From the IMG/VR virus record IMGVR_UViG_2875722834_000004: a stretch of DNA of 26,521 nt, one strand, 5' to 3'. The notes below the pieces were generated by a model. It was given only the letters and a program-made list of their open reading frames with translations, had not been told where the DNA came from and made no database searches. The first letter of the stretch is position 1. Each line of letters starts with the position of its first letter. Origin of the DNA: a virus (lineage: Duplodnaviria > Heunggongvirae > Uroviricota > Caudoviricetes). The position numbers were made by a program, and so were the translations under genes. This document shows, piece after piece, positions 1,659 to 23,216 of the stretch.

Positions 1659-4130
1659 TTAAGAATCAGCCTGACTCGGGATCAGTTTTTGCCAGATAAC
1701 TGAAACGTATTTTGCCTGGTAACGGGCGTCATCAAGTGCATTATGGCGCTCACCTTCGAATGGAATAGCCGTTCTGGCATCGAAGTCTATGGCTTTCCCC
1801 AGCTCAACGATTGTGCGTACATCGCGATCGTTGTAGTAACGCCACGGGCAGGGGATCCCCTGCCGTTCGTATGAACGGCGCAAAATCGTGTTGTCGAAGT
1901 TGGCTCCATTTCCCCAAACCTGAACAAAAAATTCACCGGAGTTTTCGTCGATAAATTCTCGCAATTGTAACAGTGCATCATCTAACGGGATTTCATCGGT
2001 CATAATGGCAGATTGCGCTTCGCGTGATTGCTTAAGCCACCATTTAATGGTGTCCCGATCAATGACTCCGCCAGCAGTTTCCAGATCGATAGTCTTACTA
2101 AATTCCGGTCCCATATCTCCGGTTTGCGGATCGAAAAATATTGCACCTATTGAGATGATCGGGGCATCAGGATTTTTTCCCATGGTTTCAAGGTCGATCA
2201 TTAGATGGTCACACGTCCTGCTGGTGGATGTGATTTCGTGATGACCGTTCACCTTAATTGGGTGATCTGCCGTCTCGCCAGTTTCATTATCGCTATTGTG
2301 ATGCTGATTGCCGCCAGTGATCTCCTTGTGTGGATGTTCAGCGCCTTCCATTTCCTCCGGATCATCTTCCTGAACTTCAACCTGATACTCTTCATCGAAT
2401 GTTTCTTGGTATGTTGCGTCGCCCATCACCGCGCCACAATCAGGGCAGTTGCCGCCGCCGGTCTGACCGCAGGCGGTGCAGACTTTTTCCACTTCCTGTT
2501 GCGCTACTGGTTCAGGCTGTTTCGTTTCTGGCTCGTTTTGTAACGCATTTGGACTGTTTTGTTCCGCTTTTTGGTAGTTCCGTTCCGATTCATGCTGGTT
2601 CTGGTTCACAGAATCGCGGGTCTGGAGCCCCTTAACCCATTTCGGATCATTCGGGTCACTAATCCCTTCAACAAATTCACCACGTGATGCAGCAAGCAAC
2701 TTATCGGCGTCAGGCTGGCTGATATTGGCTGCCTGCATAATTTTGTTTACTTCGTCAGCGGTAACTTTTATCGGCTCTGGTTGTTCTGAATCTTCAGCGG
2801 TATCTACATTTTGCGGTAAGCCCGTGTATGTGCCATTTTTTCGGGCAAAATATTCTTCTTTTGTGATTTCAGTGGCGCCAGCAGCCAGTGCCTTATCCAG
2901 ACCAGAGAGTTTGTTTGCGCGACCGTATTTTTCTCCGTCCTTATCTGCGAAGAGGAAATAGAACGGCCCCTCACGCTCTACAGATGGTTCAGCTTCCGGC
3001 GCGGTTTCATTTTTTGGGATATCAGATACCTCAGTTTCCACTGCATCAGTTTGTGTTTCTGATGACTGGAGAACATCAACAGTGCCCAGGTCTGTTTCTT
3101 CATTCTCAAACACGCCCTTTGTCGTCAGGTATTCGCAGATATATTTGTTCAGTGCTACGGGATCTTTGTGAATGTCGATCGGACGCTCACGGACAAGGCC
3201 AAAAATAGTTTGGCGGTCGTAGCGAAGGGCATCAGGCTGTTTGCGCATTGATGCCGAGATACGCTTCCAGTCTTCGCGGTCGTTGTCGATAACTTCTTTT
3301 TTTGCCCAGCGATGGATGCTGCCGTCAATGTTTCCGGCATCCACATCACTAGGCCAGAGAGCGTAGGCCAGTTCGTCATCCAGTGTTTTCCATGTCTGCT
3401 TGTATTCGCGATGAATGGCAGCAATGACCGGGCTGATTTTTCCTGTTGAATTTTCAGTGTACTGTTGATTGGCTCTGGCGCGGGCGAGATCAACAACAGA
3501 CGTGTATTTTCCGGTTTCCTTGCGTTCACCTTCGCGACGTTTTTTCCAGATGCGCATCTCTGCCTGAATTTCGGGCCATTTAGCACCAGGAATACATTTA
3601 TGCTTAACCCACCCAATGGCGTGCAACTTAAGCTCCGGATACATGGCGTTAACTTCTGGCATTTTCATCAACGCTTCAACGATATGTCCGTCGAATGTTG
3701 CCATGTCTTCCTGCAACAATTCCTGTGCGCTAATAACCATATCAACGGTGATGTTTTCACATGTGTCGAACTTAACCATGACAGCGTTCTGTACTTCAGG
3801 GGCCAGCTTGTCAAAAGTGACGTTCATCGGATCGGATTCAGTCTCAACCGGGACAAAAGAAGCAGACTCCTCATCCCAGCGGTTTTCCTGCATATATTCA
3901 GCATCCCATGAATCGAGGGCAGGGCGGGGTATGCCAGGTTTATCCTCGCAGACAATAAATTTATAAGCGCAGTCCTGAGCAGCCGGATAATGTTCCAGGA
4001 ATTGCCAGTGAAATTTTGCTCGAGCACGGCGTTCGTCGCCAGCTTCAATGGCTGTGGCTACAGCCACAGCGCCTTCTTCCCTTGTTGCCAGTTCGTCAGG
4101 AATAGCGGCGCAAATAAAGACTTTACTCAT
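1659..4130 (-). CDS. Large early-left protein with C-terminal DEDDh (DnaQ-like) 3'-5' exonuclease domain; full-length counterpart of the ydfE position in Qin
   Basis: ORF open to 4166; likely start at MSKVF (4130). C-terminal ~180 aa carry Exo I/II/III-like motifs (MIDLETMG; WGNGANFDNTIL; HNALDDARYQAKY). A CxxC...CPDC zinc-ribbon-like motif and acidic low-complexity stretches lie upstream. Located between ydfD and xis/int. Confidence 0.75.
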   Translation of the reverse strand: MSKVFICAAIPDELATREEGAVAVATAIEAGDERRARAKFHWQFLEHYPAAQDCAYKFIVCEDKPGIPRPALDSWDAEYMQENRWDEESASFVPVETESDPMNVTFDKLAPEVQNAVMVKFDTCENITVDMVISAQELLQEDMATFDGHIVEALMKMPEVNAMYPELKLHAIGWVKHKCIPGAKWPEIQAEMRIWKKRREGERKETGKYTSVVDLARARANQQYTENSTGKISPVIAAIHREYKQTWKTLDDELAYALWPSDVDAGNIDGSIHRWAKKEVIDNDREDWKRISASMRKQPDALRYDRQTIFGLVRERPIDIHKDPVALNKYICEYLTTKGVFENEETDLGTVDVLQSSETQTDAVETEVSDIPKNETAPEAEPSVEREGPFYFLFADKDGEKYGRANKLSGLDKALAAGATEITKEEYFARKNGTYTGLPQNVDTAEDSEQPEPIKVTADEVNKIMQAANISQPDADKLLAASRGEFVEGISDPNDPKWVKGLQTRDSVNQNQHESERNYQKAEQNSPNALQNEPETKQPEPVAQQEVEKVCTACGQTGGGNCPDCGAVMGDATYQETFDEEYQVEVQEDDPEEMEGAEHPHKEITGGNQHHNSDNETGETADHPIKVNGHHEITSTSRTCDHLMIDLETMGKNPDAPIISIGAIFFDPQTGDMGPEFSKTIDLETAGGVIDRDTIKWWLKQSREAQSAIMTDEIPLDDALLQLREFIDENSGEFFVQVWGNGANFDNTILRRSYERQGIPCPWRYYNDRDVRTIVELGKAIDFDARTAIPFEGERHNALDDARYQAKYVSVIWQKLIPSQADS

Positions 4131-4222: not shown

Positions 4223-4414
4223 TTAAAGACCTGCCGGGATTTCGATATTATCCTGGTGAATAACTTTATCGACCGGGTAACAGTTACCGGGAATTTTCTG
4301 TTCGGTTGCTGCAGTCATACACTCCTGCATTGTCCTGTGAACACTGACTGCAATATCAACTGGCTCTCCGGAAACAAGAAAAACTGTCAGAACAAGCACA
4401 AATGCTGAATTCAT
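4223..4414 (-). CDS. ydfD: YdfD-like small lysis-associated protein (63 aa, N-terminal hydrophobic segment)
   Basis: Recalled match to K-12 YdfD starting MNSAFVLVLTVFLVSGEPVD; start overlaps the dicB stop (ATGA-type overlap). The six-frame ORF extends upstream to 4468 but that part overlaps dicB. Confidence 0.75.
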   Translation of the reverse strand: MNSAFVLVLTVFLVSGEPVDIAVSVHRTMQECMTAATEQKIPGNCYPVDKVIHQDNIEIPAGL

Positions 4415-4599
4415 TGTGCACATCCTTTTGGCATCAGACGTAAACGAGCCAGCATTGAAACAATGCATATTTTATTTAATAGCTCCCGTTCTTGTTTTCT
4501 CTTGTTAATGGCATCTTCAGTAAATACTGGGTTACTGATAGTGACACCAATTTCAAAACAACCTTCAGACGTATTAACGTTTGGTAATAACGTTTTCAT
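4411..4599 (-). CDS. dicB: Cell-division inhibitor DicB (62 aa)
   Basis: Protein MKTLLPNVNTSEGCFEIGVTISNPVFTEDAINKRKQERELLNKICIVSMLARLRLMPKGCAQ matches my recollection of E. coli DicB; followed by ydfD as in Qin. Confidence 0.85.
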   Translation of the reverse strand: MKTLLPNVNTSEGCFEIGVTISNPVFTEDAINKRKQERELLNKICIVSMLARLRLMPKGCAQ

Positions 4600-4694
4600 T
4601 ATCGCGTCCTCAACAATGAATTTTGTGATGCAGTGCCTGGTGCCTCCAGGTGACGTTAACCAGTTAACAATTAACGCCGGATAGCAGGGAGGAT

Positions 4695-5036
4695 TTGGCG
4701 TGTGCGCAGTGGATCTGGGGGCGGATCGTGGGTCTCTACGAACAGGCAGCCAGTGATGATGGCGAGATCATGCGACCAAAAGAGCCTAACTGGACTGCCT
4801 GGGCCAATGACGTGCGCACAATGCGGATGCTGGATGGCAGAAGCCACAGACAAATTTGCGAAATGTTTGGTCGGGTTCAGCGAGATCCATTCTGGGTAAA
4901 AAACATCATGAGCCCGTCAAAGCTCCGCGAAAAATGGGACGAACTGGTCATCCGCCTGGGACGTTCACCTGTACAGCGTTGTGTTAATCATATTTCTGAA
5001 CCGGATACAGAAATTCCGCCTGGTTTCAGAGGATAA
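4695..5036 (+). CDS. Hypothetical protein, possibly an N-terminally truncated remnant
   Basis: 113-codon open frame, but the only start near the AGGGAGG Shine-Dalgarno (4686-4692) is a TTG 2 nt away; in-frame GTG at 4728 and ATG at 4770 are alternatives. No family recognised. Confidence 0.35.
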   Translation: MACAQWIWGRIVGLYEQAASDDGEIMRPKEPNWTAWANDVRTMRMLDGRSHRQICEMFGRVQRDPFWVKNIMSPSKLREKWDELVIRLGRSPVQRCVNHISEPDTEIPPGFRG

Positions 5037-5076
5037 GTGTTGATTTCAGGTCATGAGGTAATTTTAAGGGGGACTT

Positions 5077-5499
5077 GTGGCAAAAGTTTTTACACAAGAG
5101 GAGCGGGAAAAAATTAAATGGCAGGTGGTGGAACTCGTGCGCCAGAGCGGCCGTGAGACGTTACGGCAACTGGAAGCTAAAACAGGTGCGACTAGATATC
5201 TGATGAGCGTTCTTGCCAGAGAGCTGGTAGCCAGTGGCGATGTATACAACTCCGGCTACGGGTTATTCCCCTCTGAACAGGCGCGTAAGGACTGGCAAAA
5301 CGCCCGCAAAAAACTCTCGAGGGCAAAGGTGAAGAAACCTGCTGTGGTTGATCCGGACCTTATCTGGTCATCACCTGACGGAGAAATACGTCGCTACGAC
5401 AGTCGCCTAAACATAATCTGTCGCGAGTGCCGGAAGAGCGAAGTTATGCAGCGCATACTGGCTTTCTATCAGGGTAATTTTCAGGACGTGGCGCAGTGA
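5077..5499 (+). CDS. Hypothetical protein (140 aa)
   Basis: GTG start preceded by a strong SD (AAGGGGGA, 5066-5072); stop overlaps the start of the next gene (GTGAGTG). Protein is basic with a central helix-rich region; no family recognised. Confidence 0.6.
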   Translation: MAKVFTQEEREKIKWQVVELVRQSGRETLRQLEAKTGATRYLMSVLARELVASGDVYNSGYGLFPSEQARKDWQNARKKLSRAKVKKPAVVDPDLIWSSPDGEIRRYDSRLNIICRECRKSEVMQRILAFYQGNFQDVAQ

Positions 5500-5942
5500 G
5501 TGCACCGGCAACCATTCTTGATATGTGCTGTGGCAGCCGCATGTTCTGGTTCGATAAGTCTGACGAACGGGCGATATTCAGCGATATCAGAAAAGAAGGA
5601 TACACATTACGCAATGGGAGACGCTTGATTATCAGCCCTGACATTATCGCAGATTTTCGTGCATTATCATTTGCAGACGCATCTTTTTCGATGGTTGTAT
5701 TAGACCCTCCGCATCTTGAGAGTGTTGGTGATAACGCCTGGATGGGAAAGAAATATGGACGGCTGAATAAAGATGCCTGGCGTGATGATTCGCGACAGAG
5801 ATTTAAAGAAGCCTTTCGGGTGTTGAGGCCGCACGGCGTTCTGATTTTTTAATGGAATGAAACGCAAATACCGGTAAGCCAGATTCTGGCACTGACAGAC
5901 AGAAAACCTGTTATCTGTCAACGAACAGGGAAAAAACGATAA
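5496..5942 (+). pseudogene. Phage Dam-like N6-adenine DNA methyltransferase interrupted by an in-frame TAA at 5850-5852
   Basis: 118-aa ORF contains a DPPH motif (variant of the DPPY/F motif IV of N6-adenine methyltransferases). The same frame stays open for 30 more codons after the TAA (…HGVLIF*WNETQIPVSQILALTDRKPVICQRTGKKR*). A single substitution (AAA to TAA) would explain the stop. Confidence 0.55.
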
Positions 5943-6114
5943 AACCCACTGGATTATTTTTATGAAAGAGGCATCCAGTGAGTAGATTCGTAAGGCTACA
6001 GATACGTATATCTGAATAATTAAATTCAGTTCTGTAAATAAAATTTAATCCTTAACCGGATGGATTTCTGCACCCTCAGAACATCAGGAGGCCGCCCGAA
6101 AGGGCGGTAGTGAA

Positions 6115-6225
6115 ATGCGAAAGTTCAAAATTATTATTGAAACGGGAATAGCTGGTGGAGATTTTGAGGATGTATTCGAAGTGGACGATGACGCAACACC
6201 TGAGGAAATTCATGACGGAGCATAA
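6115..6225 (+). CDS. Short acidic ORF (36 codons), possibly the 5' part of a decayed gene
   Basis: ATG at 6115; ends at TAA 6223-6225; frame reopens for 23 more codons to TGA 6295-6297. Preceded by a CCGCCC-GAAA-GGGCGG hairpin (6092-6107). Confidence 0.2.
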   Translation: MRKFKIIIETGIAGGDFEDVFEVDDDATPEEIHDGA

Positions 6226-6274
6226 GAAATTTTCTTTAACTACTGCAATTACTCATACCACGAAATAAAAGACG

Positions 6275-6466
6275 ATGAGGAAGAACAAAGTGGCTGATTT
6301 TTGTTCAGCTAAATATAACATCAGTTTTGAAGAGCGGGATGAACTATTAATGGACTATGGTGAGTTACGCGGTGGAAGTGCTGCTGATGTCGAATCCTAG
6401 CGTGATGACTATGAAGCGGGAAAAACTCCGGTCGAAGCATATTGTGATGAGTGGGGCGATGAATGA
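6275..6466 (+). pseudogene. Short ORF with internal in-frame TAG (6398-6400); possible decayed phage gene
   Basis: ATG 6275; 41 codons, TAG, then 21 codons ending …YCDEWGDE with the stop overlapping the next ATG (ATGA). Confidence 0.25.
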
Positions 6467-6750
6467 GCGAGATTAATTATCAGGAAGGGCATGAAACGGC
6501 GGGGCAAGCAAAACCAGTGGCATGGCGATATCGCTACGTGAAAAAAGGCGTTACGGACTTTCAGGGGAAGTAGTGGTCTGGTGACTGGAAATATGTACCG
6601 AAAAAAGAGGATTGTAACGACAGGCCGAACTATCAAATTCAGGCCTTATTCACTGCCTCACCAGTCCCAGTTACATCAGAAGAACTGGTTAAAGCTGTGC
6701 ACTTTTATGAACAACTAAAACGCGAAAATCCACCAACATCCGGCAACTAG
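6463..6750 (+). pseudogene. ORF with internal in-frame TAG (6571-6573); possible decayed phage gene (~95 codons)
   Basis: MSEINYQEGHETAGQAKPVAWRYRYVKKGVTDFQGK*WSGDWKYVPKKEDCNDRPNYQIQALFTASPVPVTSEELVKAVHFYEQLKRENPPTSGN*; 59 codons stay open after the TAG, which is unlikely by chance. Confidence 0.3.
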
Positions 6751-7004
6751 ATTAATGGATTAACTATGTCGGTTAAACGACCAGCCAACTGAAAAAGCGG
6801 AAACCTGATTACAGGTTGCCAGATAAGGCAATGAGCTACCTGGCGCGGAACGGACTGATAAGTATGGGGAATGTTTTACGATGAACCTTTAGACTAAAGA
6901 GTTTGTAACGCTATGTAAGTGATTTTTTCTGGTTTAGATATTTATATGTCCGGCCAAATTGAGGTGTGTTTAAATGTAATTGCACATTGATTGTAGGAGG
7001 AATA

Positions 7005-7184
7005 ATGAAAAACGCATTGCAGTTTTTGTTTGTTGCGTTCTGGTTGTTCGCATCATGTATGCCCATCATCTTCACAGCAAGGTATATGGAAAAAGTTGAT
7101 GTTTTGATATTAATATTTGGATATATAAATGCCCTTTTTTTAGGGGTGTTCATGGCGGTCATGTGCATTGAATACTGGCGGTAA
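7005..7184 (+). CDS. Small hydrophobic protein (59 aa, two predicted transmembrane segments)
   Basis: ATG 7 nt downstream of a consensus AGGAGG (6995-7000); protein MKNALQFLFVAFWLFASCMPIIFTARYMEKVDVLILIFGYINALFLGVFMAVMCIEYWR; lies in an AT-rich islet. Confidence 0.5.
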   Translation: MKNALQFLFVAFWLFASCMPIIFTARYMEKVDVLILIFGYINALFLGVFMAVMCIEYWR

Positions 7185-7439
7185 ATACAGCGAACTCCAT
7201 TGGTTTAGTTGGATATTTACTGTGCTGGACAAAAACGGTTTGCGGGGAAATCTTAGTTAAGTAGAATGACTGCGGGTGCTTGAGGCTATCTGCCTCGGGC
7301 ATGGACACCAACGGCAGATAGAGAAAAGCCCCAGTTAACATTACGCGTCCTGCAAGACGCTTAACATTAATCTGAGGCCAATTTCATGCTAGACACATGT
7401 AGGTTAGCCTCTTACGTGCCGAAAGGCACGGAGAAGCAG

Positions 7440-8900
7440 GCTATTGTTAACACCAAGCTGTAATGTCCCCTTTGAACCATTCTAAAATGTCCCCAGACAA
7501 TTCTCTGGGGGATTTTTCATGATCAAAGAGACTGTTACGATGAGTCATAAGGAACTCCACCGACTTCAGATTATTCAGGAACAAGCTGCGGCACGCATTG
7601 GCATTTCTATTCGGCAGGTTAAACGTCTGGTGCAACGGTATAGAAATGAAGGGCCTTCTGGTCTGGTTTCCCACCGACGTGGAAAGCGTCCTAATAATTC
7701 CTTTTCTACTGAATTCAGAGCAACAGTAATTTCACTCCTCAAAGGCCGTTACGCTGATTTTGGACCTACGTTTGCGTGCGAAAAATTGCGCGAGATACAC
7801 GGTTTATCTTTATCCGTTGAAACTCTCAGAAAGTGGATGATAGAAGAGGGGTTATGGCGTGAACGCCGTCGTAAAATTGCCCGTATATATCAACGCCGCA
7901 TGCGACGACCATCTTACGGTGAACTGATCCAGATTGATGGCTCACCTCATGACTGGTTTGAAAATCGAGGCCCCAGATGTACACTGATCGTTTTCATTGA
8001 TGATGCCACCAGTGCGTTGATGGCGTTGCGTTTTGTGCCTGCTGAAACAACCCGGGCTTACATGGAAACCCTCCGGGGTTACCTTAATGATCATGGCGTA
8101 CCGCTCGCTCTCTACTCTGATAGACACAGTATATTCAGGGTAAATAACCCAGAGCGGGAAGGTGAGCTGACCCAGTTCACTCGTGCGATAAAGACACTGG
8201 GCATCGAGCCAATCCATGCCAACAGCCCGCAGGCAAAAGGGCGGGTAGAGCGCGCCAATCAGACACTACAGGACAGGCTGGTCAAAGAAATGCGGCTTCA
8301 GAATATCAGTGATATTGAAACAGCAAATGCATGGTTGCCGACCTTTATTGAAGCCTATAACAACCGGTTCGCTACGTCGCCTCGTACTACTGATAATGCT
8401 CATCTTGATGTGCACCATTCTGAAGAGGAACTGGGTTATATCTTCAGCCTACAGGCGAAGCGCGTTCTGTCTAAAAATCTCACTTTCCAGTACAAAAGCA
8501 GTGCGTTTCAGGTACGCAGTGAGGGCCGGGGATATCGACTTAGGCATTCGGTTGTTACTGTATGCGAGAACTTTGACGGTGAAATTAACGTTCTGTATGA
8601 CGGGAAAGCGCTGGGCTGGGAAAAGTATGTTGATGGCCCGGAGCCTATACCACTGGATGATGAAAAGAGTGTCCATGAACGAGTGGATAATGCCCGTATT
8701 GATTTACGCTCAAAATACTATGTTAAACCTAAAGCTGACCATCCCTGGCTTACGCGCCGAACGCAAAGTCATCAGCAAGTTAAGCCCCCGAAGTTACCTA
8801 AAAAGAAGCCTGATCCCGATAAAAAAGATTGAAACCAAGATCGATTCGGTTGAGTGCATATCCATTCATAGGGTAGATTCTTAAGTCGCGTTTCTGGTGT
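7440..8900 (+). mobile_element. Putative insertion sequence carrying the 437-aa transposase (ends not defined)
   Basis: Single transposase ORF replacing the segment where Qin carries dicA/dicC/ydfABC; a hairpin (CCCCAGA...TCTGGGG, 7489-7507) sequesters the GGGGGA SD-like sequence before the ATG. I could not identify terminal inverted repeats or a target duplication by eye. Confidence 0.3.
7519..8832 (+). CDS. DDE transposase/integrase (rve core), IS481/ISNCY-like, 437 aa
   Basis: N-terminal HTH-like region, then DDE triad candidates (IQIDGSPHDW, YSDRHS, SPQAKGRVERANQTLQ). Confidence 0.8.
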   Translation: MIKETVTMSHKELHRLQIIQEQAAARIGISIRQVKRLVQRYRNEGPSGLVSHRRGKRPNNSFSTEFRATVISLLKGRYADFGPTFACEKLREIHGLSLSVETLRKWMIEEGLWRERRRKIARIYQRRMRRPSYGELIQIDGSPHDWFENRGPRCTLIVFIDDATSALMALRFVPAETTRAYMETLRGYLNDHGVPLALYSDRHSIFRVNNPEREGELTQFTRAIKTLGIEPIHANSPQAKGRVERANQTLQDRLVKEMRLQNISDIETANAWLPTFIEAYNNRFATSPRTTDNAHLDVHHSEEELGYIFSLQAKRVLSKNLTFQYKSSAFQVRSEGRGYRLRHSVVTVCENFDGEINVLYDGKALGWEKYVDGPEPIPLDDEKSVHERVDNARIDLRSKYYVKPKADHPWLTRRTQSHQQVKPPKLPKKKPDPDKKD

Positions 8901-9268
8901 TCATTTTCGGGTGGTTTGTTACTTGTTTTACCGGGGATATGCCAGAAACGCGCTGAGTCAGTCTGGGCGGTGCGCGTAATGAGGCGTTATGGTAAATAGC
9001 CTATGCTAATGTCCGCTAAGAGCAAGAAGCGGAAGTTGGCAGTTTTGTGGACTGTCCCCACAAAAGTGACTACAGAAATAGTTGCAATTCATAATTGATC
9101 ATGGGTTGTCAGTTAAACTCGTGGCGATTTAAATAGACTAATTGGGAGTGCGTCCATTACTTATATCTTGTAATGTTAACTATCAGAAATGATACAAAGA
9201 TAATATGTCTTTAAAGAAAAGGCTGATGGCGAAAAGTGGCCCGATGAGGGCCACAATACGGCTGTCAC

Positions 9269-9601
9269 TTAGACGTAAATATCAATGGTGCCAGCGGTAT
9301 TTGTATCGTCTTTTTTCTCTTCTTTTTTATCAGGCTGAACTGTCGCGTCTTCATTCTTTTTCTCTGCCTGCTGCCTTAACAACTGCTCCAGTTGAGCCCA
9401 GAGGCTTTCAATTTGCTTCTGTACCAATGCAGCCATTTCTTTTTTCTGCTGTGTCGTCATCCCCTCTTCCGATGAGATTTTCCCAAGCTTTTCAGTCAGC
9501 ACCTGAATTTGTCTTGTGATTTTGGCTATTTCTGATGTTCCTTCCGGGGCGGAGTTGTTTGAAATAACGGTTGAGGTATTTCCCTGAATTGTGACAGACA
9601 T
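9269..9601 (-). CDS. flxA: FlxA (FliA-regulated protein of the Qin prophage), 110 aa
   Basis: Recalled match to E. coli FlxA; GGAGA SD before the ATG; consensus sigma-28 promoter immediately upstream. Confidence 0.8.
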   Translation of the reverse strand: MSVTIQGNTSTVISNNSAPEGTSEIAKITRQIQVLTEKLGKISSEEGMTTQQKKEMAALVQKQIESLWAQLEQLLRQQAEKKNEDATVQPDKKEEKKDDTNTAGTIDIYV

Positions 9602-9624
9602 AGATTTCTCCTTTTAAAAAAGCA

Positions 9625-9651
9625 CTATCGGCATGCACAAAAAAATCTTTA
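9625..9651 (-). promoter_or_regulatory. Sigma-28 (FliA) class 3 promoter for flxA
   Basis: Minus strand reads TAAAGATT-N11-GCCGATAG, matching the FliA consensus TAAAGTTT-N11-GCCGATAA, about 25 nt upstream of the flxA start. Confidence 0.6.
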
Positions 9652-9803
9652 ATCGTATTTCTTGTGTCATTAATTGTTTGATGTTCAGATTGTTTTCCTC
9701 GCGGGCTGGCGCGCCTCAGAAAGTAAAGCTTGTTGACAGGGGTAAACGTTCGGCAATAATTTTCTGCCGCATGCGGGTGTTGCATAAAACGTGTTACGTT
9801 CCT

Positions 9804-10109
9804 TTATCGACAGGTCAGGTCACCGCTCACCCGCCGACGAGAAAGCAACACTGACATGCTAAAGCAAAAAATAGATGAATAAGTTGAGTTGTGCATATGT
9901 AGCCTGACCGTCACAAAGTATATGGTGTCTGTACCAGTAAGATGATGGCCGGACTCTTTAAAAACGAGCTGACCTGCACAATACAGGATGGACTTAGCAA
10001 TGGCTGCTCCTGGCACAAAGCGGACAGTGATCACCGTTCTTACGACTACTTTCTGACTTCCTTCGTGACTTGCCCTAAGCATGTTGTAGTGCGATACTTG
10101 TAATGACAT
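9804..10109 (-). CDS. ydfV: Hypothetical protein in the ydfV position (101 aa)
   Basis: 101-aa ORF between flxA and relB, same length and position as ydfV in Qin; sequence identity not verified. Confidence 0.4.
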   Translation of the reverse strand: MSLQVSHYNMLRASHEGSQKVVVRTVITVRFVPGAAIAKSILYCAGQLVFKESGHHLTGTDTIYFVTVRLHMHNSTYSSIFCFSMSVLLSRRRVSGDLTCR

Positions 10110-10122
10110 TTGTAATTACAAG
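10097..10122 (+). promoter_or_regulatory. relBE operator/promoter region (relO-like inverted TTGTAAT repeats)
   Basis: CTTGTAATGACATTTGTAATTACAAG palindrome directly upstream of the relB SD and ATG. Confidence 0.55.
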
Positions 10123-10133
10123 AGGTGTAAGAC

Positions 10134-10373
10134 ATGGGTAGCATTAACCTGCGTATTGACGATGAACTTAAAGCGCGTTCTTACGCCGCGCTTGAAAAAA
10201 TGGGTGTAACTCCTTCTGAAGCGCTTCGTCTCATGCTCGAGTATATCGCTGACAATGAACGCTTGCCGTTCAAACAGACACTCCTGAGTGATGAAGATGC
10301 TGAACTTGTGGAGATAGTGAAAGAACGGCTTCGTAATCCTAAGCCAGTACGTGTGACGCTGGATGAACTCTGA
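10134..10373 (+). CDS. relB: RelB antitoxin (79 aa)
   Basis: MGSINLRIDDELKARSYA...PKPVRVTLDEL matches E. coli RelB; stop overlaps the relE start (TGATG). Confidence 0.9.
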   Translation: MGSINLRIDDELKARSYAALEKMGVTPSEALRLMLEYIADNERLPFKQTLLSDEDAELVEIVKERLRNPKPVRVTLDEL

Positions 10374-10498
10374 TGGCGTATTTTCTGGATTTTGACGAGC
10401 GGGCACTAAAGGAATGGCGAAAGCTGGGCTCGACGGTACGTGAACAGTTGAAAAAGAAGCTGGTTGAAGTACTTGAGTCACCCCGGATTCGAGGTTAA
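10373..10498 (+). pseudogene. relE: Truncated relE toxin gene (first ~39 codons, then unrelated sequence and a stop)
   Basis: MAYFLDFDERALKEWRKLGSTVREQLKKKLVEVLESPRI matches the RelE N-terminus; the frame then reads RG and stops, lacking the RelE C-terminal catalytic half. Confidence 0.8.
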
Positions 10499-10608
10499 GA
10501 AAGCTCTCAGTCTCGACTATCGGCACTGGATAATCTCTGTCAGGCTGCCTTATTCCGAACGCCCACCACGTGCGTCCCGCACTTTCCAGCAACGGATCTG
10601 GAGGTAAC

Positions 10609-11658
10609 GTGCGGGTATTACTTAGACCTGTTCTGGTGCCTGAGCTTGGGCTGGTGGTCCTTAAGCCGGGCCGTGAATCCATACAGATATTTCATAATCC
10701 TCGAGTGCTGGTGGAACCGGAACCAAAAAGCATGCGTAATCTGCCATCCGGAGTCGTTCCTGCCGTTCGCCAGCCGCTGGCGGAAGACAAAACATTGCTG
10801 CCGTTTTTTAGTAACGAACGGGTGATTCGTGCTGCTGGCGGCGTTGGCGCATTGTCCGACTGGCTATTACGTCATGTTACATCCTGCCAGTGGCCTAATG
10901 GCGATTACCATCACACTGAAACAGTCATTCACCGTTATGGTACCGGCGCAATGGTGTTGTGCTGGCACTGCGACAACCAACTGCGTGACCAGACATCGGA
11001 ATCACTGGAGCTGCTTGCTCAACAAAATCTGACAGCATGGGTGATTGACGTCATCCGTCACGCAATAAGCGGTACGCAGGAGCGGGAATTATCTTTGGCT
11101 GAATTATCCTGGTGGGCGGTCTGCAATCAGGTGGTGGATGCACTACCTGAGGCTGTATCGCGTCGTTCGCTGGGATTACCAGCGGAAAAAATCTGCTCGG
11201 TGTACCGCGAAAGCGACATCGTACCGGGAGAGCAGACCGCCACCAGCATATTGAAACAACGCACAAAAAATCTTGCACCGTTGCCTTACGCCCACCAGCA
11301 ACAAAAATCACCACAGGAAAAGACGGTGGTAAGCATCACCGTTGATCCAGAGTCTCCGGAATCTTTCATGAAGCTGCCTAAACGTCGCCGCTGGGTTAAG
11401 GAGAAATACACACGTTGGGTTAAGACACAGCCGTGTGCTTGCTGCAGTATGCCAGCCGACGATCCGCATCATCTGATTGGTCACGGGCAGGGCGGAATGG
11501 GAACAAAAGCACATGATCTCTTTGTGTTGCCTTTGTGCAGAAAGCATCACAACGAGCTGCATACGGATACAGTGGCATTTGAAGATAAGTATGGCTCCCA
11601 ACTGGAGCTGATATTTCGTTTTATCGATCGCGCGCTGGCAATTGGCGTACTGGTGTAA
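10609..11658 (+). CDS. ydfU: YdfU-like protein (DUF968-type) with a C-terminal HNH/zinc-finger-like motif
   Basis: GTG start 4 nt after a GGAGG SD; 349 aa, the length I recall for K-12 YdfU; C-terminus has CACCSMPADDPHHLIGHG...CRKHHNELH. The six-frame ORF extends upstream to 10570. Confidence 0.7.
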   Translation: MRVLLRPVLVPELGLVVLKPGRESIQIFHNPRVLVEPEPKSMRNLPSGVVPAVRQPLAEDKTLLPFFSNERVIRAAGGVGALSDWLLRHVTSCQWPNGDYHHTETVIHRYGTGAMVLCWHCDNQLRDQTSESLELLAQQNLTAWVIDVIRHAISGTQERELSLAELSWWAVCNQVVDALPEAVSRRSLGLPAEKICSVYRESDIVPGEQTATSILKQRTKNLAPLPYAHQQQKSPQEKTVVSITVDPESPESFMKLPKRRRWVKEKYTRWVKTQPCACCSMPADDPHHLIGHGQGGMGTKAHDLFVLPLCRKHHNELHTDTVAFEDKYGSQLELIFRFIDRALAIGVLV

Positions 11659-11671
11659 GTGGAGAACGAGC

Positions 11672-12424
11672 ATGAACCTTGAAGCCTTACCAAAATATTA
11701 CTCCCCAAAATCTCCAAAATTGAGCGATGACGCTCCAGCGACAGGCACCGGTTGTTTAACAATTACGGATGTAATGGCAGCGCAGGGGATGGTGCAGTCG
11801 AAAGCACCACTTGGGTTGGCCTTATTTCTGGCAAAAGTTGGTGTTCAGGACCCTCAGTTTGCGATTGAAGGCCTGCTAAATTACGCGATGGCACTGGATA
11901 ACCCGACATTGAACAAATTGAGTGAAGAAATCCGGTTACAGATTATTCCTTACCTCGTGAGTTTTGCCTTTGCTGATTACTCCAGGTCTGCGGCAAGTAA
12001 GGCTCGCTGTGAGCATTGTTCAGGTACGGGATTTTATAATGTATTGCGCGAAGTGGTGAAACACTACAGACGCGGGGAATCTGTAATCAAGGAAGAATGG
12101 GTGAAGGAACTATGTCAGCATTGCCATGGTAAGGGCGAAGCCAGCACAGCGTGCAGAGGGTGTAAGGGTAAAGGGATTGTTCTGGATGAAAAAAGAACCC
12201 GGTTTCATGGCGTACCGGTATATAAGATTTGTGGGCGTTGTAATGGAAACCGGTTTAGTCGTTTACCGACCACGCTGGCACGACGTCATGTCCAGAAGCT
12301 GGTACCAGACCTGACCGATTATCAGTGGTATAAGGGGTATGCGGACGTCATTGGTAAACTGGTAACAAAGTGCTGGCAGGAAGAAGCATACGCGGAAGCG
12401 CAATTGAGGAAGGTGATGAGATAA
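11672..12424 (+). CDS. quuQ: Late-gene antiterminator Q homolog (QuuQ-like), 250 aa
   Basis: Cys/His-rich zinc-binding region (CEHCSGTG...CQHCHGKG...CRGCKGKG...CGRCNG) typical of Q-family antiterminators; sits upstream of the lysis cassette. Confidence 0.75.
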   Translation: MNLEALPKYYSPKSPKLSDDAPATGTGCLTITDVMAAQGMVQSKAPLGLALFLAKVGVQDPQFAIEGLLNYAMALDNPTLNKLSEEIRLQIIPYLVSFAFADYSRSAASKARCEHCSGTGFYNVLREVVKHYRRGESVIKEEWVKELCQHCHGKGEASTACRGCKGKGIVLDEKRTRFHGVPVYKICGRCNGNRFSRLPTTLARRHVQKLVPDLTDYQWYKGYADVIGKLVTKCWQEEAYAEAQLRKVMR

Positions 12425-12845
12425 ATGATTTTTGCTGAAGATGGCGACATGATGTTTGCATTTTTCAAAAAATATGGATAAAATTTTTTCAACGATGGGC
12501 TTTGTATACCCGACGTTAAGAAAAAGTAGAAAACCTGCTGATGAGCGGGTTTTGTGCTTTAAATGGGGCAATGGTAATGTTGAATATCATCCCGGGACTC
12601 ATGTCTGTTAACTTATTATTTAGCTGGTGACTTGGTTATTTGCCTGATGTTTAAAATGTTTTCTTCCAGTACAATGTCCCTAAACACAATGAGTCTGCTT
12701 ATTATATTATTAGCAGAGCTATTACGGCCAAAGTACAGCATAAGCTTTTAAAGCCAATCAACCAGTCATCAAGACAGACGGGGTTATTCATAAAAACTCT
12801 CCATGTGTGATCCGATGGGGCCTGAAATTAAAGCTTTAATATAGC

Positions 12846-13058
12846 TCATGAAAGGTAAACATTGGCAGCTGAAGGGCCACGCAGACCATTTATCCGGCAA
12901 AATTCCACGCGTAATCCGGTGGTAATTTCTTCTGCATCGCGGAGATTGAGCGCTGAAACATGAAGCTGGACATCGATACGACCATCGGATGGGGTGATAA
13001 GACCCTTGCCGCTTTTGCCGTCAAAGGTTTTGACAATTCCTGTCATTTTACGGGACAA
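12846..13058 (-). CDS. cspF: Cold-shock-domain protein CspF-like (70 aa)
   Basis: [37 protein letters not shown]...; cold-shock domain, divergent from cspB as in Qin. Confidence 0.8.
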
Positions 13059-13358
13059 AAAAATTCCTTAATACTGATAACTTGGCGCACTATACACACG
13101 TTCCTGAAGAAAGCTATAGTTTTTTGATGGGGTTGAAGATGGCTGGATGTCTAAAATAAACATTGCTTCATATGTTCAACTATGCGTTAATGATTGCGTC
13201 GGTTTGAAGAACAGACGATATACGAAGTAGTTTACTAAAGCAGTTCTCATTTCAGGTGTTATTCACTTATTCCTTCTTTGAGTCTCTCCAATTAAGTACG
13301 AAGTCGTTTCTGTTATGCAAACCATTTATGCCGAAAGGCTCAAGTTAAGGAATGTAGA

Positions 13359-13574
13359 ATGTCAAATAAAATGACTGGTTTAGTAAAATGGTTTAACGCT
13401 GATAAAGGTTTCGGCTTTATTTCTCCTGTTGATGGTAGTAAAGATGTGTTTGTGCATTTTTCTGCGATTCAGAATGATAATTATCGAACCTTATTTGAAG
13501 GTCAAAAGGTTACCTTCTCTATAGAGAGTGGTGCTAAAGGTCCTGCAGCAGCAAATGTCATCATTACTGATTAA
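13359..13574 (+). CDS. cspB: Cold-shock protein CspB-like (71 aa)
   Basis: [38 protein letters not shown]... with RNP1/RNP2 motifs; AGGAAT SD; long upstream leader. Confidence 0.85.
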
Positions 13575-13855
13575 AATTCATCGCTCGTCTGTATACGATA
13601 ACGAAGAAGGCTGATGCCTGAGTAGAGATACGGACAGAGTAGTGAATATTGGATCTCTTTAATAAAAAGTAAGGAGGTCCAATACATGAAACAATGGCTA
13701 GCATATTTGGCAAAATCTTAATCAGGAAAAGTATGCTAACCATTGTGGTGAAGTGCAGGTTTGCTGCATGAATAGTTTTACAGCAGAAGCTAACTGCTGG
13801 CATGGCAAAACAAAGTGCGTAAGTGGATGACTCCCACAAAAAGCACCACAATCTC

Positions 13856-14859: not shown

Positions 14860-15048
14860 ACACAAAAATCAGATACGGCCTGTCGGCTGCCGTTCTGGCG
14901 CTGATTGGTGCTGGCGCATCTGCTCCTCAGATACTTGACCAGTTTCTGGACGAAAAAGAAGGTAACCACACAATGGCATACCGCGATGGTTCTGTGAACC
15001 GCCCCGGGAATCCTGGAGACTAAACTTCCTGAGAAAGAGGTAAACAGG

Positions 15049-15375
15049 ATGACTAAAAATACTCGTTTTTCCCCCGAAGTCCGTCAACGGGCAGTCCGTA
15101 TGGTTCTGGAAAGTCAGAGCGAATATGACTCACAATGGGCGACAATTTGTTCCATTGCTCCAAAGATTGGCTGTACGCCGGAGACTCTGCGTGTCTGGGT
15201 TCGCCAGCATGAGCGGGATACCGGGGGCGGTGATGGAGGGCTCACCACCGCTGAACGTCAGCGTCTGAAAGAGCTGGAACGTGAAAATCGTGAACTGCGC
15301 CGCAGTAACGATATCCTTCGCCAGGCTTCCGCTTATTTTGCGAAGGCGGAGTTCGACCGCCTCTGGAAAAAATGA
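15049..15375 (+). CDS. IS629 OrfA (transposase N-terminal/HTH protein), 108 aa
   Basis: [23 protein letters not shown]...; leucine-zipper-like C-terminus; overlaps orfB in the -1 frame. Confidence 0.9.
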
Positions 15376-16262
15376 TGCCACTGCTGGATAAGCTGCGTGA
15401 GCAGTACGGGGTCGGACCGCTATGCAGCGAACTGCATATTGCCCCGTCAACGTATTACCACTGTCAGCAACAGCGACATCATCCGGATAAACGCAGTGCC
15501 CGTGCGCAGCGCGATGACTGGCTGAAGAAAGAGATACAGCGCGTATACGATGAAAATCACAAGGTATACGGTGTGCGTAAAGTCTGGCGTCAGTTGTTAC
15601 GGGAAGGTATCAGAGTGGCCAGATGCACTGTGGCACGTCTCATGGCGGTTATGGGACTTGCCGGTGTTCTCCGGGGTAAAAAGGTCCGTACGACCATCAG
15701 CCGGAAAGCCGTTGCCGCAGGCGACCGCGTAAACCGTCAGTTCGTGGCAGAACGACCTGACCAGCTGTGGGTGGCTGATTTTACTTACGTCAGCACATGG
15801 CGGGGCTTCGTCTATGTGGCGTTCATCATTGATGTGTTTGCCGGATACATCGTGGGGTGGCGGGTCTCATCGTCCATGGAAACGACATTCGTGCTGGATG
15901 CACTGGAGCAGGCGTTATGGGCCCGTCGACCGTCCGGCACGGTCCATCACAGTGATAAAGGTTCTCAGTATGTATCGCTGGCCTACACACAGCGGCTTAA
16001 GGAAGCCGGATTACTGGCATCAACAGGAAGTACAGGCGACTCGTATGACAACGCGATGGCGGAGAGCATCAATGGTCTTTACAAAGCGGAGGTAATACAC
16101 CGTAAGAGCTGGAAAAACCGTGCAGAAGTGGAACTGGCCACACTCACGTGGGTGGACTGGTATAACAATCGACGATTGCTGGAAAGGCTGGGCCATACTC
16201 CTCCGGCAGAAGCAGAAAAAGCTTATTATGCTTCCATCGGAAACGATGATCTGGCAGCCTGA
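15372..16262 (+). CDS. IS629 OrfB (DDE transposase catalytic domain), 296 aa
   Basis: rve-type DDE domain (WVADFTYV...[10 protein letters not shown]...[13 protein letters not shown]); -1 frame relative to orfA, consistent with IS3-family OrfAB frameshifting. Confidence 0.9.
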
Positions 16263-16662
16263 GTTCACAGATAAAACACTCTCCAGGAAACCCGGGGCGG
16301 TTCACTGGCATATGGACCATCTGTCGGGGTGCCACAGTGGTGGATGGAAAAACCGTTTTTCCCAATATGAAACTGTCGAAGGAAAAATGCGACCAGGTCA
16401 ACGCCATTGAGCGTGATAAGGCGCTGGCATGGGTGGAGCGCAATATTAAAGTACCACTGACCGAACCACAAAAAGCGGGTATCGCGTCATTTTGTCCCTA
16501 TAACATTGGCCCCGGTAAGTGTTTCCCGTCGACGTTTTATAAGCGGCTGAATGCTGGTGATCGTAAAGGTGCATGCGAAGCGATTCGCTGGTGGATTAAG
16601 GATGGCGGACGCGATTGCCGCATTCGTTCAAATAACTGTTACGGTCAGGTTATTCGTCGTGA

Positions 16663-17196
<534 letters not shown>

Positions 17197-17558
17197 GGTA
17201 ATATTAAATCGGAACATTTACATCGCGGAATGTAAAATTTAAATAAAAAGGACTCTTCCATGAGCCAAAATTCCTGAAATCTTAAGGGTAAGATAAAAGG
17301 TCTTAATCAGAATGACACGTTTTATTAATAAATAAAGCTATTCTTTCATTGCTGTGTTTTTCTTTACAAAAGTAATCCTTGCTATGGGTGGTTAATCATG
17401 CGTTAATGGTGTTCTGGTTTGTTACAAATTTATCTGAAGCAGTCATTGTTATAATTTTATTATTTGTACCTCTTGAGATTTCCTTGTTGGTTTTTCTCTC
17501 TGATATTTTTTTTCGGACCATTCTGCCCAAGGGCTAATTTCTTCAAAAGGTAATAATT

Positions 17559-17771
17559 ATGTCTAACAAAATGACTGGTTTAGTGAAATGGTTTAACCCT
17601 GAAAAAGGTTTTGGTTTCATCACGCCGAAAGATGGCAGCAAAGATGTGTTTGTCCATTTCTCAGCAATTCAGAGCAACGATTTCAAAACATTAACTGAGA
17701 ATCAGGAAGTTGAATTTGGTATTGAGAACGGACCTAAAGGTCCTGCCGCTGTTCATGTAGTGGCGCTTTGA
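17559..17771 (+). CDS. cspI: Cold-shock protein CspI-like (70 aa)
   Basis: [70 protein letters not shown]. Confidence 0.9.
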
Positions 17772-17781
17772 GGTAGACAAT

Positions 17782-17970
17782 ATTACAAACCATATTCACT
17801 TTAGATGCCCGTGTTGTCATGGTTCCCAGTATAGAACATCATCTTTTGATGTTTCTGACATGAATCCTTTCGGGGCAAAATGTATCTTTTGTAAATCAAT
17901 GATGATTACATTTGATAATATTTCACAATACTTAAATGCCAGCCGTCTGTCGTTGGATTTAAAAAAGTGA
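17782..17970 (+). CDS. ynfN: YnfN-like zinc-ribbon ORF (CPCCHG...CIFCK) with no canonical start codon in frame
   Basis: Open frame ...HFRCPCCHGSQYRTSSFDVSDMNPFGAKCIFCKSMMITFDNISQYLNASRLSLDLKK*; the only in-frame ATG (17860) lies after the first CxxC pair. Possible ATT start at 17782 seven nt after a GAGGT; followed by a terminator. Gene-symbol assignment is by position and motif only. Confidence 0.3.
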   Translation: MTNHIHFRCPCCHGSQYRTSSFDVSDMNPFGAKCIFCKSMMITFDNISQYLNASRLSLDLKK

Positions 17971-22641: not shown

Positions 22642-23216
22642 TGGCATTCAGAATGAGTGAACAACCACGGACCATAAAAATTTATAATCTGCTGGCCGGA
22701 ACTAATGAATTTATTGGTGAAGGTGATGCATATATTCCGCCTCATACAGGTCTGCCAGCAAACAGTACCGATATTGCACCGCCAGATATTCCGGCTGGCT
22801 TCGTGGCTGTTTTCAACAGTGATGAGTCATCGTGGCATCTCGTTGAAGATCATCGGGGTAAAACGGTTTATGACGTGGCTTCCGGCGACGCGTTATTTAT
22901 TTCTGAACTCGGTCCGTTACCGGAAAATGTTACCTGGTTATCGCCGGAAGGGGAGTTTCAGAAGTGGAACGGCACAGCCTGGGTGAAGGATACGGAAGCA
23001 GAAAAACTGTTCCGGATCCGGGAGGCGGAAGAAACAAAAAACAACCTGATGCAGGTAGCCAGTGAGCATATTGCGCCGCTTCAGGATGCTGCAGATCTGG
23101 AAATTGCAACGGAGGAAGAAATCTCGTTGCTGGAAGCATGGAAAAAGTATCGGGTATTGCTGAACCGTGTTGATACGTCAACTGCACAGGATATTGAATG
23201 GCCAGCACTGCCGTAG
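22641..23216 (+). CDS. Tail fibre assembly protein (Tfa), 191 aa
   Basis: Size and position directly downstream of stf (TAATG overlap); resembles lambda Tfa. Confidence 0.8.

Follow-up and report, generated by a model that had tools for sequence, protein, structure and literature searches.

The relBE locus studied here is very probably a degraded copy of the K-12-type relBEF operon that arose through one spontaneous deletion, i.e. a case of neutral decay in which a toxin-antitoxin module lost its toxin first. The whole stretch of DNA that was analysed (26.5 kb, referred to as the window) represents a cryptic lambdoid prophage of the Qin type from Escherichia coli and is nearly identical to that of strain HH107 (NZ_CP116405.1), the complete genome of an isolate from treated biosolids in Canada. 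The two differ by four substitutions and by one insertion sequence of 1,310 bp, which is present in the window and absent from HH107. The relBE genes of K-12 are a textbook system, and the gene order at the locus, ydfW, flxA (minus strand), ydfV (minus strand), relB, relE′, an ORF remnant, ydfU, ydfT, cspF and cspB, matches that of Qin in K-12. When aligned with the K-12 reference locus (L003 from NZ_CP032667.1), the window shows 100% identity at positions 8648-10489 and 99.76% identity at positions 10484-13396. The features of the region are as follows:

9804-10109, minus strand: ydfV, divergent neighbour whose 5′ end overlaps the relB promoter/operator; 100% identical to K-12; both HH107 and K-12 have it annotated here as WP_001326990.1
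10098-10121, plus strand: predicted relO operator inside the relB promoter, with half-sites TTGTAATGACAT (10098-10109) and TTGTAATTACAA (10110-10121); region identical to K-12
10134-10373, plus strand: relB, intact gene of 79 codons plus stop for the antitoxin and autorepressor; protein as in K-12, WP_000534858.1 in HH107
10373-10498, plus strand: relE pseudogene; K-12 codons 1-39 (10373-10489), followed by Arg-Gly and a stop codon that are read out of frame from downstream DNA
10488-10490, no strand: deletion junction 10489/10490, placed by base-by-base comparison with the K-12 locus
10485-10607, plus strand: 3′ remnant of a 92-codon ORF (codons 53-92 plus stop); by tblastn 40/40 residues identical to WP_012304870.1 residues 53-92
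10609-11658, plus strand: ydfU (DUF968/HNH-like), intact; PF06147, E = 7e-76, and HH107 annotation
11672-12424, plus strand: ydfT (quuQ), Q-type antiterminator gene and next gene on the same strand; PF03589 (Antiterm), E = 4e-54, and annotation

A first-pass annotation of the sequence had proposed an alignment with the K-12 relE-hokD-rem-ydfU interval, and this alignment locates the breakpoints to the base. Relative to K-12, there is one deletion of 1,093 bp (positions 4591-5683 of the reference locus). The left-hand match ends at window position 10489 (reference 4590) and the right-hand match starts at 10488-10490 (reference 5682-5684). The exact microhomology at the junction consists of TT (10488-10489), 2 bp that are common to both parental sides. 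The hexamer at the window junction, CGGATT (10484-10489), equals the left-hand K-12 sequence CGGATT and agrees with the right-hand sequence CGGGTT in five of six positions. A true 6-bp direct repeat was therefore upheld in part only, as the right copy reads CGGGTT both in K-12 and in IGC_RcoliRes_1.1. Strain RM9088 has CGGATT on the right side, but relBE is apparently absent there, which leaves the ancestral right-hand sequence uncertain. Given how little sequence is shared at the junction, the deletion most likely originated at a repeat of only a few bases, through illegitimate recombination or slippage during replication, and not through an IS-mediated or site-specific event.

The missing segment comprises relE codons 40-95, including those for Arg81 and Tyr87, the entire hokD gene, a predicted terminator hairpin downstream of hokD (G+C-rich, AACCCGCTTCGGCGGGTT followed by a T-run, reference 5057-5074), rem, and the first 52 codons of the unnamed 92-codon ORF (WP_012304870.1), which in K-12 lies between rem and ydfU and ends one base before the ydfU start. 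According to pattern scans, the hairpin is the only plus-strand terminator-like site of the K-12 interval, and two weak promoter-like sites of K-12, one before rem and one before the 92-codon ORF, were lost as well. When K-12 RelE, HokD, Rem, the 92-residue ORF and the whole deleted segment were compared with the 26.5-kb window by tblastn and blastn, the two remnants alone were recovered; a full-length relE, which the first-pass annotation had suggested looking for, is absent from the window, as are hokD, rem and the relE 3′ half. For hokD, blastn yielded no match in the window, and the best tblastn hit covers 31 residues of a short hydrophobic stretch at 42% identity (E = 0.016). The K-12 gene belongs to PF01848 (Hok/Gef, E = 1e-23), and no ORF of the Hok type follows relE in the window. 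A megablast query with relB/relE′/ydfU found a single place in HH107. An Rfam scan of the deleted K-12 interval for Sok-like RNA returned only a sub-threshold isrK-like match over the terminator hairpin (25 bits, with the gathering score at 50); the loss of an antisense regulator along with hokD thus finds no support. The first-pass annotation had described the hokD/rem interval as missing and had proposed that the deletion removed two toxins, RelE and Hok, and kept the antitoxin and autorepressor. This structural reading stands, as a single 1,093-bp deletion left relB, its promoter and relO untouched; the comparison extends it by the loss of the hairpin and of two thirds of the 92-codon ORF, and by the finding that both remnants are already annotated as pseudogenes in HH107.

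Each breakpoint interrupts an ORF that K-12 has in full, and 1,110 of 5,426 complete E. coli genomes (about a fifth) contain no less than 80% of the relB-to-ydfU interval of K-12. Therefore, it is reasonable to regard the short form as the derived one, which resulted from a loss and not from an insertion elsewhere. The reverse scenario, in which hokD and rem were ancestrally absent from this position, is ruled out by these interrupted ORFs, which K-12 has intact, and by flanks made up of K-12 DNA.

On the upstream side, the 79-residue relB product is identical to K-12 RelB, matches PF04221 over residues 1-79 (E = 1e-32) and is unchanged in five other carriers of the deletion. The relO operator consists of two adjacent 12-bp half-sites with four hexad repeats, and the half-sites have been defined via mutagenesis (PMC2812701). 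In the window, the predicted operator is recognised by one exact match each to TTGTAATGACAT at 10098 and TTGTAATTACAA at 10110, which adjoin with zero spacing. The earlier statement that relB and a relO-like operator are intact is thus borne out, with the protein, the promoter and both half-sites matching K-12 exactly. With respect to the make-up of a functional type II RelBE module, the window encodes first an antitoxin of the RelB family, which combines a ribbon-helix-helix N-terminus with a toxin-binding C-terminus, and has, by sequence, an autoregulated relO promoter. The third component, a full-length RelE of the RelE/ParE fold with Arg81 and Tyr87 among its catalytic residues, directly downstream of relB, is replaced by residues 1-39 and RG-stop.

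The ORF at 10373-10498 translates as MAYFLDFDERALKEWRKLGSTVREQLKKKLVEVLESPRI followed by RG and a stop codon (10496-10498), which gives a product of 41 residues. Its residues 1-39 (ending in ESPRI) are identical to those of K-12 RelE (39/39; tblastn E = 3e-22), and the divergence sets in at base 10490. This confirms the previous view that the match with RelE extends to ESPRI, diverges at about 10489 and stops, so that the C-terminal catalytic half is absent. As in K-12, the TGA of relB (10371-10373) overlaps the ATG of relE (10373-10375) in the sequence TGATG, the arrangement expected of translationally coupled genes. Given this stop/start overlap, the relE stump is probably still translated. 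Its product would hardly act as a toxin. The PF05016 toxin domain occupies residues 6-83 of full-length RelE, and a Pfam search of the stump gave no match. Moreover, the R81A variant of RelE is non-toxic (PMC2812701), and catalysis depends critically on Tyr87 of the C-terminal helix (PMC3507626). The stump retains Glu14, the residue that contacts Arg65 of RelB in the complex (PMC3507626). As the beta-sheet core is gone, the peptide will probably fail to fold, and it is probably non-toxic and unstable. The automatic NCBI annotation of HH107 lists relE as a pseudogene (‘incomplete, missing C-terminus’). Judged from its coding sequence, the module can no longer work as a toxin-antitoxin system.

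Downstream of the junction, the remnant of the 92-codon ORF lacks its own start codon, lies in a frame different from that of relE and belongs to no Pfam family; it is annotated by NCBI as a pseudogene in HH107 (‘missing N-terminus’). The tail of this ORF accounts for the approximately 110 bp that had been noted between the relE remnant and ydfU, which amount to exactly 110 bases (10499-10608). The ydfU gene itself has a GTG start at 10609 preceded by GGAGG at 10600-10604, and encodes 349 residues with three substitutions relative to K-12.

To trace the distribution of the allele, a 120-base junction probe was searched against 5,426 complete E. coli genomes, and HH107 was the only one with a contiguous match. 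An exact 30-mer scan for the junction in JGI metagenome contigs returned no match. By exact protein identity, the 41-residue product is listed in 48 blocks of an assembly index. At least 24 further contigs encode it, and all 24 that were read share the same neighbouring genes. Carriers come, among others, from two sequencing-run assemblies, the GenBank assembly GCA_050028015.1 and a human gut metagenome (ERZ919766). Four of the carrier loci are 99.9% identical to the window, and these four together with HH107 show zero changes in relO, relB and relE′. The deletion is thus a genuine allele, inherited within a single E. coli lineage and seldom encountered in complete genomes. Because the carriers are near-identical and the allele is young, the unchanged relB is uninformative on selection either way.

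The course of events was very probably as follows. A deletion of 1,093 bp joined codon 39 of relE to codon 53 of the 92-codon ORF in front of ydfU. This destroyed RelE, whose beta-sheet core, C-terminal helix, Arg81 and Tyr87 are all gone, and carried off hokD, the predicted terminator hairpin and rem as well. The lineage was left with an intact, self-repressing relB and the 41-codon relE stump. To our knowledge, loss of the toxin and retention of the antitoxin is the only harmless order in which such modules can decay. RelB would still be made from its own promoter. The relBE promoter is strong, and RelB alone represses it, whereas efficient repression requires RelE as co-repressor; in addition, RelE inhibits the degradation of RelB by Lon in vitro (PMC2812701). 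Since RelE both co-represses and protects RelB, RelB without its partner is presumably a weaker repressor and shorter-lived, with looser repression at relO and faster degradation by Lon. The outcome may be a somewhat more active relB promoter and a shorter-lived RelB. Nothing points to a new role of the remnant, and the young allele appears to be simply inherited.

The interval has also decayed elsewhere. In strain 17MR471 (NZ_CP051158.1), about 1 kb of the relE-ydfU interval was deleted independently at 3-4 bp of microhomology, which indicates that the interval has been lost repeatedly. Insertion sequences break it in other strains, and the annotation of K99S shows relE split in two. In a large number of strains, BL21(DE3) among them, hokD, rem, the ORF and ydfU are present without relBE; here, the match with K-12 starts just upstream of hokD.

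The first-pass annotation had also raised the possibility that free RelB cross-regulates other relBE-like loci. This proposal is speculative and finds no support here. Cross-talk between non-cognate pairs has been described as rare (PMC12301738), and the only realistic targets of free RelB are identical relBE copies that arrive on plasmids or phages. Such copies are widespread: 732 plasmids carry the K-12 relBE cassette with an identity of at least 99%, and any match at all is found on 784, of which 617 are predicted to be conjugative. The matching plasmids span Klebsiella, Enterobacter, Escherichia, Citrobacter, Salmonella and others, and K-12-type relBE is also present on one sequenced phage. 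One may thus imagine that the orphan RelB serves as an anti-addiction or immunity factor, which neutralises RelE and represses relO of incoming plasmids or phages, so that a plasmid can be lost without killing. Apart from the abundance of these identical cassettes, the intact relB, promoter and relO of the window fit this idea, and anti-addiction by chromosomal antitoxins is an established concept that is often proposed for orphan antitoxins (PMC7354431, PMC10790755). Nevertheless, we consider it an unlikely account of the allele. An intact chromosomal relBE, as in the fifth or so of E. coli genomes that hold at least 80% of the interval, would protect equally well, and therefore the deletion creates no new capability. 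Furthermore, with one carrier among 5,426 complete genomes the allele is rare, and it is too young to show selection; the free pool of RelB may also be small, as RelB loses part of its protection from Lon when RelE is missing (PMC2812701).

Quite unlikely, too, is that the deletion acted as a promoter fusion, through which transcripts from the relB promoter extend through ydfU to ydfT, the gene for a Q-type antiterminator, and place genes of the cryptic prophage under stress control. In K-12, probes for relB, relE and relF (hokD) each revealed a single transcript of equal size, which is the full-length relBEF mRNA (PMC3598666), and the single plus-strand terminator-like hairpin of the K-12 interval, located after hokD, sits in the segment that was deleted. 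A pattern scan detected no plus-strand terminator-like site between relB and position 11592 of the window. Both ydfU and ydfT lie on the relB strand, with the ydfU start 110 bp past the stop of relE′, and the weak promoter-like sites before rem and the 92-codon ORF went with the deletion. Release from repression would be in keeping with a strong relBE promoter that depends on RelE for efficient repression (PMC2812701). On the other hand, the sites on which this argument is built are all predictions by simple pattern scans, and RelB alone still represses. In addition, the 110 untranslated nucleotides that follow the premature stop contain more C than G (36 versus 25, with a ratio of up to 1.8) and could load Rho, which would result in polarity. 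The relB promoter is induced by starvation. A broader scenario drawn from the arrangement of the sequence would combine the two ideas: the starvation-inducible promoter would drive ydfU and ydfT, stress that degrades RelB would switch on the late region, and in parallel RelB would blunt post-segregational killing by relBE plasmids. We regard this combination as improbable. If read-through into the Q antiterminator gene did take place, it would provide a small example of a deletion that rewires the regulation of a cryptic prophage.

The notion that the truncation is an artefact of assembly or sequencing, and that the real genome has a complete relE-hokD-rem, is effectively refuted by independent assemblies: collapsed assemblies can in principle yield deletions, but nothing specific was found in favour of such a collapse, the junction has no repeat able to collapse (just 2-6 bp are shared), the window shares its junction with the complete HH107 genome, from which it differs by an insertion sequence and four substitutions, and at least 24 contigs from unrelated projects, including a gut metagenome, encode the same 41-residue product.

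Toxin-first decay thus remains the reading that we favour, and the allele is an ordinary lineage-specific pseudogene of a well-known locus, in which RefSeq already flags relE as such. Its significance beyond correct annotation is small, since surveys count such cases by the tens of thousands. Still, the lineage is a natural relE/hokD-null that has kept relB, and it might serve as a ready-made control for RelB without RelE, be it for repression strength or for turnover by Lon. It could also be used to ask whether a chromosomal RelB weakens the maintenance of conjugative plasmids that bear relBE. The junction GAGTCACCCCGGATT/CGAGGTTAAGAAAGC is unique and makes a clean marker for the HH107 lineage.

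The closest relative of the module is the relBEF (relB-relE-hokD) operon of Qin in K-12, which occupies the same locus at the same prophage position. The sequences of ydfV, the promoter, relO, relB and relE codons 1-39 are all 100% identical between the two, and ydfU-ydfT are 99.8% identical. The window differs from K-12 in that it is without relE codons 40-95, hokD, the predicted post-hokD terminator hairpin, rem and 52 codons of the ORF that precedes ydfU, and neither toxin can still be produced from its module. The 17MR471 allele likewise lacks hokD, rem and the 92-codon ORF, but there relE is complete and codon 8 of hokD is fused in frame to the ydfU start; accordingly, the type II module survives in that strain and the hok part alone is lost.

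In a wider context, the locus falls into line with the orphan antitoxins of degraded type II modules. Orphan antitoxins are abundant in E. coli, with 73,201 occurrences across 950 genomes (PMC10790755). In a Klebsiella survey, a high percentage of orphan antitoxins looked like remnants of degraded modules, and an adjacent toxin fragment is given there as the signature that classes an orphan as a degraded module and not as a genuine solo gene (PMC7354431). The window conforms to this pattern, as its intact relB adjoins a recognisable toxin fragment, the 39 codons of relE; an intact parent exists elsewhere, and the breakpoints are located at the base level. Unlike the surveyed cases, the event, the breakpoints and the parent sequence can all be named here, and the allele is confined to one lineage. 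A further parallel is offered by Erwinia chrysanthemi, whose chromosomal CcdA neutralises CcdB of the F plasmid. Similarly, the chromosomal RelB could neutralise a matching plasmid-borne toxin, given that identical relBE copies are common on conjugative plasmids. The difference is that neutralisation in Erwinia was demonstrated by experiment (reviewed in PMC7354431), whereas RelB of this lineage is known from its sequence.

When the relBE cassette of K-12 (positions 4235-4761 of a locus taken from NZ_CP032667.1) was used as a query against a plasmid collection, 784 plasmids matched, 732 of them at an identity of at least 99%, and 617 of the 784 are predicted to be conjugative. They come from Klebsiella (254), Enterobacter (249) and Escherichia (76), with others from Citrobacter, Salmonella, Edwardsiella and further sources. 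Therefore, the 'chromosomal' relBE of E. coli also travels widely as a module on plasmids. A comparison across genomes revealed that many E. coli strains, BL21(DE3) included, carry hokD, rem, the 92-codon ORF (WP_012304870.1) and ydfU without relBE; in these strains the stretch that resembles K-12 sets in roughly 14 bp 5' of the hokD start (position 4819 of the K-12 locus onward). This arrangement fits an origin of relBE as a separate insertion beside a truncated hok locus.

Strain 17MR471 (NZ_CP051158.1, locus positions 3333-3360) has lost about 1 kb of the relE-ydfU interval independently of the deletion in the window. Here, an in-frame fusion at a GTT(G) microhomology links codon 8 of hokD with ydfU, at about codon 10 of the latter; rem and the 92-codon ORF are lost while relBE is intact.

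Three substitutions (positions 11446, 12417 and 12586) are private to the window, as K-12, the near-identical strain HH107 (NZ_CP116405.1) and four other deletion carriers show the alternative base wherever their sequence covers the position. The first, G>A, changes YdfU by G280S within the Cys-rich CACC(G/S)MPADDPHH motif of an HNH-like domain; the second, C>T, results in YdfT T249M, and the third, C>A, is intergenic. HH107 also lacks an IS3-family element, presumably akin to IS629/IS1203, which splits the prophage lysozyme gene rrrQ, ends in terminal inverted repeats (TGAACCGCCCCGGG…) and is associated with a 3-bp target duplication, CTG:

14995-16304, IS3-family insertion sequence of 1,310 bp
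15049-15375, its orfA
15372-16262, its orfB
15330-15446, its ALIL frameshift pseudoknot (Rfam)

Four further features lie elsewhere in the window:

10116-10682, minus strand, 188-codon ORF antisense to relB, the relE stump and the deletion junction
13198-13590, cspA-type thermoregulator leader ahead of cspB (Rfam)
17413-17798, cspA-type thermoregulator leader ahead of cspI (Rfam)
22984-23182, IS009 RNA near the tail-fibre/pinQ end (Rfam)

The antisense ORF, annotated in none of the records examined, is probably a chance open frame. The two leaders and the IS009 RNA are expected features of Qin.

The early region contains a strong Rfam match (104 bits versus a gathering score of 59), followed closely on its 3' side by a transposase ORF:

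7274-7445, plus strand, RF01794, 'sok antitoxin (CssrC)'
7519-8832, plus strand, 437-codon ORF with helix-turn-helix and integrase-core matches

No Hok-like ORF was seen near the RF01794 match, only a hydrophobic ORF of 72 codons (6966-7184), and the NCBI annotation of HH107 has no feature at this place. The match may represent a hok/sok remnant or an RNA without relation to hok. RefSeq labels the equivalent of the 437-codon ORF as an ISNCY / IS1202-like (ISEsa1 family) transposase 'missing C-terminus'. The early region (about 4688-8647) differs from its K-12 counterpart, and in K-12 Qin it is ydfX/dicC that occupy the position held here by the transposase ORF.
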